Below, one piece after another: positions 33,552-37,900 of a stretch of DNA of 64,000 bases. Each line of letters starts with the position of its first letter. Position 1 is the stretch's first letter. The notes beneath the pieces were generated by a model. The model made no database searches. It worked only from the letters and a program-made list of their open reading frames with translations, and had not been told where the DNA came from. The stretch comes from Cladosporium halotolerans (taxonomy: Eukaryota), in the NCBI RefSeq assembly GCF_011745625.1, contig NW_027191457.1:124001-188000 (forward strand). Direction: 5' to 3'. Position numbers and translations under genes: made by a program.

Positions 33552-33563
33552 AAAAAGCAAAAA
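33552..33563 (-). terminator. Pol III-type oligo-T terminator downstream of tRNA-Ser
   Basis: The minus strand reads TTTTTGCTTTTT, starting 8 nt after the discriminator base. Confidence 0.7.
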
Positions 33564-33604
33564 GATATTTCGACACCTGTGTGATTCGAACACACGCTCC
33601 CGAA

Positions 33605-33660
33605 CTGGACAATTGTTAGGACATGTCGGATGAGATGAGATCTTTGAGGCTCGAACTTAC
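33605..33660 (-). other. Spliceosomal-type intron 2 of tRNA-Ser (56 nt, in the variable arm)
   Basis: GTAAGT donor, CCTAAC branch site at 33620-33615, GTCCAG acceptor. Confidence 0.9.
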
Positions 33661-33697
33661 GGAACTGCCTTAGCAGGGCAGCGCGTTAACCACTCCG

Positions 33698-33752
33698 CTG
33701 GAGAACTTGTTAATGCCCGTCCGTGACCGATGGATGCTTGGAGCAAGCTTAC
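33698..33752 (-). other. Spliceosomal-type intron 1 of tRNA-Ser (55 nt, between tRNA positions 10 and 11)
   Basis: GTAAGC donor, CATTAAC branch site at 33715-33709, TTCTCCAG acceptor. Confidence 0.88.
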
Positions 33753-34983
33753 CCAAAGTGCCAATTGATGAATCGGTGACGACATTGGAAGTTTCACAAA
33801 CTATATAACTCAATTTTGAAGTAGGGAAGCCCTAAGCGCCGAATTCCTTGGACTTTCGAGACGCCGAGCAGAAGATCAATCTTCAACATGAGTGCAATGC
33901 AGTAAATCTAGTAATGATGGAAGAAAATAGACAGCGTCTTGCATTACTTTGCTACAGATGCTTAGATAGTCAACACTCAGCTAACCATCACGTGCCCTAA
34001 GTCTTGCAAGCTTTTGAAGACTTCAAGTCATGTTCTAGTAGAGTGAATGTATTGGACGCTAGGTCGAAATACATCTCCATAGTCGATGGAAAATATAGTA
34101 CCGGGTAACTCCTTTTCCTAGCAGAGACAGGAGAATAGAAACACATAGTAGTAACGACTTTTTCCTGGGAACAGTTTGTATACAAAACTTGATTCTGTAT
34201 GAAAATTCGATTCTGTATGATCCAGTGAATGAGCTCTTCTTGCGTAAGGCAACGGCATCCATAGCCGCCTCGGAACCTGCACGACAGTCAAGTCACATCA
34301 CTTCACTCCGCCTCAGCGTGGCCGAATCATGCGTTGCTTGTGAAGGCATCCGTAGGCGACGGCGCGCGGGTTACGAAACCGGCTTAGCGCAGAGAGCTCC
34401 CGCATGGGCTTGGCTGCAGCTTTGCAACAACGCGCCTCACGCTTTCTCGCCCGCCAGCAAGCACTACAAGAAAAGCTGCCCGCCAGCATCCGCGCGCTGC
34501 GCTACTCTTCAACCAAATCTCTCCTTTAGCGTGTACATTACGACCAGAACTGCGACCCGTGTCTGCGCCAGCGACGGCGCTCGACGACCCCTTCGACATC
34601 GCCATTCAGCGACGTCTCTTCACGACTACGCGCGCGTCTTGTCTTTGACATTCTCGCAGCAGCTGCAATACCACAAGGTACGAGGCAGTCCAGCAACTTT
34701 GCGCGTAGCATTTTCGCTGCGCTCGTTTGATTCCGCACGGCTTGAGCACCATTTGACTGCTGGGCGTCAGGAGACTGGCGCACTGGAGCTCGGCAAGGAG
34801 TCTACTTCCGGGTTGAACTCGAGGACATACTTTGCTAACTTAGACCCCTTACAGGCTTTCACTGCACCCATCTCCCGCCATCCCGCGCTTGCGCGCTTGC
34901 GCGAAATCATTTGCGACCTGTCCACCTGCATAGTGGCTCCTTCACTAGACTTGCAGTGCACCAGCTCGATCTAAACCACCAGT

Positions 34984-37900
34984 ATGTCGTTCGGGTTTGG
35001 CAGTGGCAACACCGGCTCAACCTTCGGCGGCTTCGGTAGCAATAACAATAACAACAACACGAACACCTCGGGCGGCTCACTCTTTGGTGGGAACACTTCC
35101 ACATCAGGTGGCTTTGGAAGTGGTGGTGCAACTGGAGGTTTCGGAAGCGGCAACGCGAGTAACCCTTTCGGTCAGAACAAGACCACTTTTGGCTCACCTG
35201 CTGCCACGTCAGGAGGCGGCATGTTCGGTGGAGCGGGAACCAGCACCACGGGTGGCTTCGGCTCCGGGGGTGGCTTTGGCAGCACAAATAACACTGCGAA
35301 CACCGGGTTCGGCTCAACGAACACTTCCGGTACGTTGATTCCTGGGAAACACCCGCTTTAGAATGCAAGGACTAACTCTCGTTTAGGAGGCGGCCTCTTC
35401 GGTCAGAGCAAGCCCGCTACTGGCGGGTTCGGCAGTAGCACCGCCGCTCCAAGTGGAGGTGGCCTCTTTGGTTCCTCCAACACTGGCGGAGGGTTTGGCT
35501 CCACCAACACAGCGCAAAGCAATCCTTTTGGAGGCAGTAGCACGGCCACCAGCAACCCGTTTGGTGGTGGGGCCTCTGGCACAACCGGTGGATTTGGCGC
35601 AAGCAACACGAACAACACAGGCTCAGGCTTCGCGTTTGGCGGCAACAACAACGCCAGTGCTACTGGCAATGCCAACCAAGGCACCTCAGGGACACCCTTC
35701 CAAGCTGTCACCGAGAAGGATGGCAGCTCGAGCCAGACTAGCTCTTATCAGAGCATCACAATGCAGCAGCCTTACCAAGCCAAGAGTTTCGAAGAGCTGA
35801 GAGTGGAGGACTACATGCAGAATCGTCGCCTTCCTCAGAGCGGCAGTTTTGGCGGTGGCAGTACTTTTGGTGGCTTCGGACAGAGCAACAGCACTGCGGC
35901 ACCGGCTGCTCAGACTGGTGGTGGACTGTTCGGCGGTGGCAGCAGCACTGGTGGTTTCGGAGCCTCTAATACAAACACCGGATTCGGCGCGAACGCCAAC
36001 TCGAACACCGGATCGGGCTTTGGTGCTAGCAATACTGGTGGTGGTCTTTTTGGCGCGAAGCCTGCAACTGGTGGTGGTCTCTTCGGCAACAACGCTGCCA
36101 GTAGCGGTACATCCACTGGAGGGTTTGGCGCCACTTCTGGGAGTGGCGGCGGGCTTTTTGGAAACAACCAGCAGAGCAACACGGGCAGTGCGTTTGGCGG
36201 CGGCAGCACCGGTGCATTTGGATCCACGAACAACAATACCTCAGGAGGGGGCCTGTTTGGTCAGTCGAACCAAACTCAGAACAAGCCTGCGTTCGGCGGC
36301 TTCGGCTCGTCCACGACCAACACTGGCACTACAGGCGGATTTGGACAGACCAACAACTCTTCCCAGCCCCAGCAAGGAGGCGGCCTGTTCGGCAACAACG
36401 CGTCGAGCACTGGAGGTTTCGGCGCTAGCAACACAGGCGGATCTTTGTTTGGAGGCCAGCAAAACAAGCCTGCTAGTGGCGGATTGTTCGGCGGAAGCAC
36501 CACCGGGACATCAAACACCGGCGGCGGACTCTTTGGCGGCGCGAACAACTCGAACACCAACACTCAGAGCGGGGGCTTCGGACAGTCGACCGGCAACACC
36601 GGCGGTGGCCTCTTTGGCTCCAACAACAACAATCAGAGTGCCAACACAGGCGGCAGCCTTTTTGGCAACAACCAGAACAAGCCTGCAGGCGGTGGACTTT
36701 TCGGCTCGAGCACGACTGGTAGCAACACGGGCGGAGGATTGTTTGGCAACAACAACCAGCAGAGCTCAAATACCGGCGGCTCACTGTTCGGAAACAACCA
36801 GACTCAGCAGAACACGGGCGGATCTCTCTTCGGTGGTCAGCAGAACAAGCCGGCGGGCGGCAGCCTCTTTGGTAACAGCACTGGTGGTGGTGGCTCGCTG
36901 TTCGGCAATACCCAGAACCAGAGCTCGGGTGGCCTCTTCGGTGGAGGGAACAACACCAACCAGACCGGCGGATCTAGTCTTTTCGGGAACAACAACCAGA
37001 ACCAGAACCAAGGCGCAGGCTCTAGCCTATTCGGGGGCAGCCAGCAGCAGCAACCTCAGCAGAACCAGTTGACGGCGACACTGACGGGCGATCCTTACGG
37101 CAATGCTCAGCTCTTCTCGTCTCTTGCAGCTCCCAGTCCACCAGTCGGTCCTCTCGCGACCCCCCTCAGCGGAGCAAAGGCTCCGCCCAAGCCTAGGACC
37201 TCGTTGCTTTCGTCTGTCCGCGGAAGCACTCCCATGCTTGGAGCGAGCCAATCGATGACGCCGCGGACAAGGCCTGGCTATGGTTTCTCTTACAGCGCTT
37301 ACAACAGCCCAAGCTCTGCGTCTCAGTCTCTTACGCCCGGTGCGGCAGGTCTTCTCCGTCCCACTGGCTCCTTTGGCTCTTCACTCTCCGGCAAACTTTC
37401 CAAGAGCTTTTCTTCATCCAACTTGCGTGGCGATGCTCCTCCTGAGGGTCAGTCTCTGTTGCGAACCCCGGCGGCAGGCCAATCATCGCTTCTCCTTGGC
37501 AACGGCAATGGCTCGTTCGGATCGGGTAGTGCCAGGAAACTCAAGATCGATCGCAATCTCAGGACTGATCTGTTCGGTGACAACACTCCCAAGCAGAAGC
37601 AAGTCGAAGGTGCCAAGGACCAGGATTCCATGCGGAAGCGTGTAAGCTTCGACCAGACCGCCGAAGAAACCCCAGCCAAGCCGACGGCGGCTAATTCTCT
37701 GGTCGTTCGCGAAGAAGAGGAGAACAACACGCCGACTGGTACCCCCGAGGCTCCACGCGTTAACGGCAGCGCCCTCGACTCGGTTCCCGAGGAGTCCAAC
37801 ACTCCTAAGGCTACAGCATCGCCGAAGTCCAGGAAGCCGTTGGATCCTGGTGATTACTTCACTTCGCCCTCGCTCAAGGTGCTCAAGGGCATGTCTCGCC

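Follow-up and report, generated by a model that had tools for sequence, protein, structure and literature searches.

Can a transfer RNA (tRNA) gene that is split by introns of the spliceosomal type still be a gene for RNA polymerase III (Pol III)? The question is raised by a locus in Cladosporium halotolerans. We analyzed a 64,000-nt stretch of contig NW_027191457.1 (positions 124,001 to 188,000 of the forward strand; hereafter, "the window"), which carries a split serine tRNA gene on its minus strand. A first-pass annotation, made from the sequence alone, had proposed that a Pol III transcript of this gene is spliced, and that the introns rebuild the promoter boxes that they interrupt. What it stated about the sequence itself proved correct throughout, at the coordinates given. 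We found that independent split tRNA-Ser(GCU) loci have kept the TATA box and the candidate terminator, but not the promoter-box look-alikes that the introns carry. Judging from these sequences, the locus is probably a functional nuclear tRNA-Ser(GCU) gene in a genome of the filamentous-fungus type, with two ordinary short GT-AG introns, that is still organized as a Pol III unit.

A serine tRNA gene in five parts

The split gene is 192 nt long and has five parts (exon-intron-exon-intron-exon). Its features are listed here by their positions in the window. "All five sequences" refers to the window and the four related sequences that are described below, and T4 or T5 is a run of four or five T.

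33807-33802, minus strand: TATATA, at -45 to -40 from the mature 5' end; candidate site for TFIIIB/TBP
33762-33753, minus strand: exon 1, 10 nt; tRNA positions 1-10, with the 5' acceptor strand and T8, G9, and G10 of the A box; identical in all five sequences
33752-33698, minus strand: intron 1, 55 nt, GTAAGC..ATTAAC..CAG, spliceosomal type, without a T4 run
33700-33690, minus strand: CAGCGGAGTGG, a near A box made of the CAG of intron 1 and the exon-2 part of the A box
33697-33661, minus strand: exon 2, 37 nt; the rest of the D arm, the anticodon arm (GCT), and the first 4 nt past the anticodon stem; identical in all five sequences
33660-33605, minus strand: intron 2, 56 nt, GTAAGT..CCTAAC..CAG, in the variable arm, without a T4 run
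33656-33648, minus strand: GTTCGAGCC, a B-box look-alike that overlaps the GTAAGT donor of intron 2
33604-33571, minus strand: exon 3, 34 nt; the rest of the variable arm, the T arm, the 3' acceptor strand, and the discriminator G
33591-33583, minus strand: GTTCGAATC, the true B box, in the T loop, with 5/5 stem pairs; identical in all five sequences
33563-33552, minus strand: T5-GC-T5, starting at +8 after the discriminator base; candidate Pol III terminator

Once both introns are removed by a script, using their coordinates, ARAGORN identifies a class II tRNA-Ser(gct) of 81-83 nt with a long variable arm. In the unspliced 64-kb window, ARAGORN finds no tRNA gene and a search with Rfam finds no RNA gene. 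ARAGORN's intron search (-i) does not recover the split gene; it makes one call in the window, with a 2374-nt "intron," which we judged to be spurious. Neither ARAGORN nor the sites that match the B-box consensus (GTTCRANNC) point to any other tRNA gene in the window. Because split tRNA genes are invisible to standard finders, the counts of tRNA genes in fungi are probably too low.

Intron 1 separates tRNA positions 10 and 11, and intron 2 interrupts the variable arm. The site of the canonical tRNA introns (37/38, one base 3' of the anticodon) is free of either, and the anticodon loop, CTGCTAA, is uninterrupted. Canonical introns, which are removed by the TSEN endonuclease and a ligase, likewise interrupt a tRNA gene and have to be removed for function. 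The introns in the window differ from them not only in their sites but also in their signals (GTAAG..CTAAC..CAG), and ARAGORN's intron search is blind to them.

Both introns look like U2-type introns: the donor resembles GTRNGT, the branch site resembles CTRAY and precedes a YAG acceptor by 10-20 nt, and the length is typical of mRNA introns in the host. The branch site and acceptor are TTAAC..CAG in intron 1 and CTAAC..CAG in intron 2. For comparison, four introns in neighboring mRNAs that are verified by RNA have lengths of 49, 54, 57, and 177 nt, so three of the four are in the size class of the tRNA introns.

We compared the locus to four sequencing runs, all in the form of contigs, from which starts, ends, and strand cannot be read. 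Two of these runs (X3 and X8) look like RNA: their contigs show GT..AG joints at the MFS and Nup genes nearby. No contig from X3 or X8 lies on the tRNA locus, and these runs are uninformative about its expression.

Relatives with the same two introns

We ran one metagenome scan for relatives of the split gene. The pattern comprised the anticodon arm and the GT..GT donor and required 15 of the 37 nt of exon 2. It returned five loci. One of these (L005) was a chance match without a tRNA and was dropped. The other four (L001 to L004) are split tRNA-Ser(GCU) genes, which ARAGORN identifies as tRNA-Ser(gct) only after in-silico splicing; in the unspliced L001 to L005, it finds neither these genes nor any additional tRNA genes. 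L003 and L004 represent the same locus (they agree fully over both introns and over the 100 nt upstream, and at 95% over the 60 nt downstream). So, the window and L001 to L004 give five sequences but four independent loci, or three independent relatives of the window's gene. Pattern scans for further relatives among genome contigs and viral contigs gave 0 matches.

The introns of the relatives are at exactly the same two sites as in the window, with lengths of 53-54 nt for intron 1 and 51-57 nt for intron 2. Exons 1 and 2 are identical between the window and the relatives. In the T stem, there are three double compensatory changes, from GTGTG/CACAC in the window to AAGAG/CTCTT in the relatives, which is strong evidence from sequence that a working tRNA has been maintained in both lineages. 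The intron 1 sequences have 0.52-0.67 identity, which is near random (0.53 +/- 0.05 for 55-mers). Nevertheless, all five sequences have a GT donor, a CTRAY-like branch site, and YAG at intron lengths of 51-57 nt. One relative (L003/L004) has GTTCGT as a donor. The splice signals are kept in introns that have otherwise diverged, and the exons give a perfect cloverleaf; this pattern points to purifying selection over the long term, acting on the tRNA as well as on the signals for splicing. The need for in-silico splicing in all five sequences, the identity of the exons, and the compensation in the T stem all indicate that the split gene is under selection.

Intron 2 contains an 11-nt block around the branch point, CATGTCCTAAC, that is common to the window and L001/L002 (it is CATGTCCTTAC in L002), while the rest of intron 2 has diverged. 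The conservation of this block exceeds what the CTRAY consensus requires.

The other two sequencing runs (X1 and X2) behave as DNA or as a metagenome; X2 covers 30/30 bins and shows no joints at the introns of the neighboring genes. In contigs from X1 and X2, exon 1 is joined directly to exon 2 (at place 33698), behind 5' flanks that are unlike the window's. One X2 contig skips exactly 33605-33660, which is intron 2. We considered this contig as evidence of splicing but rejected it as such, as X2 is DNA-like; the contig is more likely to come from a paralogue that lacks the intron. These contigs indicate that the presence of the introns varies among paralogues, copies, or strains.

Copies that are less split, or not split at all, raise another explanation: the window's gene could be a dead or dying copy that acquired introns, with Pol III signals and a cloverleaf that are recent relics, while intron-free paralogues supply tRNA-Ser(GCU). 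However, the same two intron sites are found in a lineage whose T stem is different and has changed in a compensatory way. Also, the introns are nearly random in sequence and yet have kept their donor, branch site, and acceptor, and the exons give a perfect cloverleaf. We consider it very improbable that the gene is dead.

Signals in the flanks

According to the first-pass annotation, TATATA lies about 40-45 nt upstream of the mature 5' end and T5-GC-T5 lies directly downstream. Both are where it placed them, at -45 to -40 and at +8, respectively. We then asked if these signals are present in the relatives. A TATA-like box is found at -48 to -31 in all five sequences, and hence at 4/4 independent loci; it is TATATA, except for TATAT in L002. 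A T run starts at +5 to +9 in all five sequences. The window, L001, L002, and L004 have T5 or longer, and L003 has T4 (at +7). These signals sit in flanks that are otherwise unalignable: both upstream and downstream, the flanks of the relatives have 0.47-0.66 identity, versus 0.53 +/- 0.05 for random 55-mers. In contrast, the B-box match in intron 2 is present at just 1/4 independent loci, so the expectation that the motifs would be conserved in related loci held for the flanking signals and not for the intronic one.

How often would such signals arise by chance? The window is 57% G+C, and we estimated chance levels from shuffles or from the fraction of window positions. TATATA occurs at 2 sites in the 64 kb, versus 0.96 expected from shuffles. 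TATAWA would be found at -50 to -29 for 0.08% of window positions, and a T5 would start within 20 nt for 1.3% of them. The intergenic DNA around the gene has a higher A+T content (43% G+C), and on the immediate flanks the chance rises to 3-8% per signal; these are upper bounds, because the flanks include the elements themselves, and they are still small when multiplied over loci. Overall, the sequences support the view that the extragenic signals of the Pol III type are real, are improbable by chance, and have been kept in three independent relatives.

Contigs from X1 and X2 that match the tRNA diverge from the window exactly at its 3' end (places 33570 and 33553) and continue with long T runs in the tRNA sense. 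This is a hint only, as the agreement with the consensus is 0.62-0.87.

The downstream T run would provide the oligo-T terminator of a type-2 Pol III unit. The lack of internal T4 is by itself uninformative. As the first-pass annotation stated, neither intron has a run of four or more T, and indeed there is no T4 anywhere in the 192-nt gene. But among 21 pattern-defined candidate introns in the window, just 3 contain T4, and T4 is absent from 2/4 of the RNA-verified neighboring introns. Because 18/21 candidate introns in the window also lack T4, a T4-free pair of introns is expected. All 10 introns of the window and the relatives lack T4, but only 8 of these are independent, and the background probability of this outcome is 0.86^8 or ~0.3. 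So, we rejected the avoidance of T4 in the introns as evidence: 8 independent introns are not sufficient, and the absence of T4 is the expected outcome.

The position of the TATA box may be compared with what is known for other tRNA genes. In S. pombe and in plants, tRNA genes are described as having a TATA box at -30/-24 from the start (PMC7279448, citing Hamada et al. 2001). These genes share with the split gene an A box, a B box, and an upstream TATA. With the box at -45 to -40 from the mature end, transcription of the split gene would start ~10-15 nt upstream of the tRNA, and the TATA would be ~30 bp before the start; the start site, and hence this spacing, is predicted. The tRNA genes of S. 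pombe and plants differ from the split gene in that their A boxes are contiguous and they lack spliceosomal introns.

Two other similarities in the flanks are worth mentioning. First, the motif TGATCTTC followed by (T/G)G(C)TC, on the tRNA strand, is found at -116 in the window (33871-33878, minus strand), at -73 in L001, and at -68 in L002. It is absent from L003/L004, and it occurs 3 times in the 64-kb window, counting both strands. It could be a remnant of a common ancestral flank or an upstream element. Second, the 9 nt before the mature 5' end (33763-33771) are alike, within flanks that cannot be aligned: TCATCAATT in the window, TCATCGATT in L003/L004, and ..TGATT in L001/L002. The similarity of these last bases of the leader possibly reflects a constraint on the leader or on the start site.

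The A and B boxes and their look-alikes

In the spliced tRNA, the A box is TGGCGGAGTGG, which fits the consensus TRGCNNAGTGG at 11/11 positions. In the DNA, the 55-nt intron 1 splits it into TGG and CGGAGTGG. There is no contiguous A box starting near +8 of the mature RNA; instead, the contiguous CAGCGGAGTGG starts at gene position 63 and has a C for the T. That intron 1 cuts the A box after TGG and that its acceptor yields CAGCGGAGTGG had already been described, correctly, in the first-pass annotation. But this near A box is not an independent observation: exon 2 supplies 8 of its 11 bases, and another two come from the AG with which an intron has to end. Because the AG of the 3' splice site and exon 2 produce this look-alike automatically, it is probably a by-product. 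Its first base is C in all five sequences, whereas the consensus has T, and the acceptor is always CAG and never TAG. If there were a constraint on the acceptor of intron 1 to maintain an A box, it would favor TAG, so CAG in 5/5 sequences is either contrary to the idea or uninformative.

The B box is intact: GTTCGAATC, a GGTTCGANTCC-like sequence, is in the T loop and is flanked by a 5-bp stem. The remainder of the A box in exon 2 is 109 bp from this true B box, start to start (gene positions 63 and 172). From T8 of exon 1, the distance is 164 bp.

Intron 2 contains GTTCGAGCC, which fits the GTTCRANNC consensus and, as previously noted from the sequence, is present besides the true B box of the T loop. 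On both strands of the window, there are 18 matches to GTTCRANNC versus 19.6 expected, so the motif is not enriched, and not one of the remaining 16 sites combines a 5-pair stem with a T run. By arithmetic from the window count, ~0.016 matches are expected in 111 nt of intron, which is modest, several motif types having been looked for.

Could GTTCGAGCC be an auxiliary or replacement B box in the window's copy of the gene? In Schizosaccharomyces, a match to the B box is reportedly present inside the intron of the U6 genes (this is the claim in the title of a 1990 report by Frendewey and colleagues). The fit of GTTCGAGCC to GTTCRANNC, at ~0.016 expected by chance, is in keeping with such a role, and GTTCGAGCC is 44 bp from CAGCGGAGTGG, start to start (gene positions 63 and 107), which is the canonical spacing of A and B boxes. 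However, the motif is absent from intron 2 of L001, L002, and L003/L004, that is, from 3/3 independent relatives, even though another part of intron 2 is conserved. In a closely similar contig from X2, GTTC is changed to GTTT (T instead of C at place 33653). The first two bases of the motif belong to the GTAAGT donor consensus, and its flanking "T stem" has just 3/5 pairs, although the pairing is relevant to the RNA and not to TFIIIC. Furthermore, the true B box is intact 65 bp further on. Finally, given the geometry of tRNA promoters, TFIIIC on the pair of CAGCGGAGTGG and GTTCGAGCC would be expected to direct a start inside intron 1, and exon 1 would be lost, which also counts against this role. 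Unlike in Schizosaccharomyces U6, the true B box here is exonic and the intronic match is not conserved. We consider it improbable that GTTCGAGCC acts as a B box.

Instead, GTTCGAGCC would be a chance extension of the GTAAGT donor. As far as the sequences can tell, both look-alikes are by-products and not promoter elements. The proposal that intron sequence restores the boxes, or that the introns are under constraint to keep TFIIIC bound, is not supported. More generally, promoter-box look-alikes that use intron bases should not be read as constraint; here, the splice-site consensus itself gives rise to one of them.

We also considered if intron 2 might be a partial duplicate of the T arm. We rejected this idea because just 3/5 stem pairs form and the motif is not conserved. 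If only intron 1 is removed, ARAGORN uses GTAAG-TTCGAGC-CTCAA as a poor T arm.

Pol III or Pol II?

The split gene is most likely a Pol III gene whose start is anchored by the TATA box and whose transcript requires the spliceosome. The alternative is transcription by RNA polymerase II (Pol II), as for a small nuclear RNA (snRNA) or another short non-coding RNA. The TATA box would be a Pol II element, capping and the C-terminal domain of the polymerase would recruit the spliceosome, RNase P and RNase Z would excise the tRNA, and the T tracts would either be left over from the ancestral Pol III gene or belong to the region where Pol II terminates. Having spliceosomal introns is described as characteristic of Pol II transcripts (PMC12530127). 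Also, the contiguous A box is broken and displaced, and with a first exon of 10 nt plus a leader, the help of a cap in recognizing the 5' splice site might be useful. The T runs argue against this alternative. They start at +5 to +9 in 5/5 sequences, amid trailers that cannot be aligned, and T runs are also seen in the diverging copies from X1 and X2; a relic would not persist like that. All of the sequences have an intact B box, though the T loop itself requires it. There is a precedent, in U6, for Pol III transcripts that are spliced, and no host gene lies on the same strand. Taking these points together, we view Pol II transcription of the split gene as unlikely, but it deserves to be taken seriously.

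Several observations weigh against a spliced Pol III transcript, or against the importance of the split copy. First, the 109 bp between the A-box remainder and the B box is outside of the 30-90 bp range. Second, the contiguous part of the A box is 63 nt into the gene and would be ~75 bp from the predicted start. In ordinary tRNA genes, the A box is roughly 20 bp from the start, and we know of no type-2 promoter with an A box ~75 bp from the start. Third, a TATA box ~30 bp before the start suits Pol II equally well. Fourth, L003 has only T4 downstream. Fifth, L001, L002, and L004 are from one metagenome and may be paralogues from one organism, in which case the three relatives may represent only one other lineage. 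Sixth, there are intron-free and one-intron copies in the DNA-like runs, so the split copy may not be essential.

The first-pass annotation had suggested that the spliceosome's substrate is an uncapped Pol III transcript. The idea of a spliced Pol III transcript is strengthened by the retention of Pol III-type flanks and by the precedent of U6. "Uncapped" does not hold up as a criterion: according to a review, 5-22% of the pre-tRNAs that Pol III makes in yeast carry a cap (PMC10275265), so neither the lack of a cap nor its presence is a safe discriminator of the polymerase. The conserved TATA box and T run make the question of the polymerase directly testable with simple constructs.

A proposed path from the split gene to the tRNA

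We infer all of the steps of the following mechanism. TFIIIC would use the intact B box in exon 3 as its binding site, with weak binding also to what is left of the A box in exon 2. Because intron 1 displaces this A-box remainder by 55 bp from the start region, TFIIIB would be placed by the upstream TATA box. A conserved TATA box is what would be expected if the A box no longer sets the placement of TFIIIB. Transcription would start ~30 bp downstream of the TATA box, at a CA that is 7-18 nt before exon 1. By the -30/-24 rule for TATA boxes, this CA would be near -15 in the window, at -18/-15 in L001, and at -7 in L003/L004. Pol III would read through both introns, which are T4-free by happenstance, and would stop at T5-GC-T5, giving a precursor of roughly 215 nt.

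The spliceosome would remove both introns, as it does for the U6 intron of S. pombe. Until splicing is complete, neither the acceptor stem (exons 1 and 3) nor the D arm (exons 1 and 2) nor the variable arm (exons 2 and 3) could fold; cleavage by RNase P and RNase Z and the addition of CCA would come afterward.

If so, then the split genes may represent a class of fungal tRNA genes with a hybrid Pol III promoter (a TATA box, an exonic B box, and an A box that is split or displaced by an intron), for which the spliceosome is obligatory before tRNA processing. We propose this class tentatively, as something a little short of an even bet.

Comparison to known systems

The closest known system is the combination of intron-bearing U6 genes from fungi and the hybrid promoter (TATA, A block, and B block) of SNR6, and the split tRNA would be a variant of that kind. 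The U6 RNA of S. pombe is described as a Pol III transcript with an mRNA-type intron that is spliced by the spliceosome (PMC5855946). Like the split gene, the U6 genes of S. pombe and other fungi are of the Pol III class, and they have mRNA-type introns with a canonical 5' splice site, branch site, and 3' splice site. Unlike in U6, the RNA that is interrupted here is a tRNA and not a part of the spliceosome, so the origin that is proposed for the U6 introns, by reverse splicing at the active site, is not obviously applicable.

SNR6 from S. cerevisiae has a TATA box, an A block, and a B block that is ~200 bp away, versus a normal distance of 30-90 bp (PMC5855946). The split gene resembles SNR6 in that a TATA box would help to place TFIIIB while TFIIIC would bind A and B blocks at a non-standard distance (109 bp, with a conserved TATA box). 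The A block of SNR6 is ~20 bp from the start, and SNR6 lacks an intron; in the split gene, the contiguous part of the A box would be ~75 bp from the start.

Spliceosomal introns have also been reported in the ribosomal DNA of ascomycetes, which is transcribed by Pol I, and in genes for the U1, U2, and U5 snRNAs (Bhattacharya et al. 2000; Takahashi et al. 1993, 1996; cited in PMC5855946). These are mRNA-type introns in genes for non-coding RNAs, as in the split tRNA gene, but the class of gene and the polymerase differ.

In textbooks and recent reviews, spliceosomal introns are assigned to Pol II transcripts (PMC12530127) and tRNA introns to the TSEN pathway (PMC10275265). Our full-text literature searches turned up no account of a tRNA gene with spliceosomal introns; these searches cover subscription journals poorly, so this is not proof.

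If the split gene is transcribed and spliced as we propose, then the supply of a tRNA depends on the spliceosome, and split tRNAs would join U6 as the second natural class of Pol III transcripts that undergo splicing. If the class with a hybrid promoter is real, then the spliceosome would be an obligatory enzyme of tRNA maturation in these fungi, and Pol III transcripts other than U6 would be regular substrates for it. The conserved TATA box would then be a compensating element that permits an intron inside the A box.

Neighboring genes

The neighbors of the split gene are a gene for an MFS/UNC-93-type transporter and a Nup98-96 gene, which are of fungal type, as are the short GTAAGT..CTAAC..YAG introns. 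Both genes are on the plus strand, opposite to the split gene, which is not nested within a host gene on its own strand. Upstream of the open reading frame of Nup98-96, which starts at 35761, contigs from both of the RNA-type runs (X3 and X8) show a 177-nt GT..AG intron at 34676-34852 (plus strand). This intron probably belongs to the 5' untranslated region of the Nup98-96 gene or follows a small first exon.

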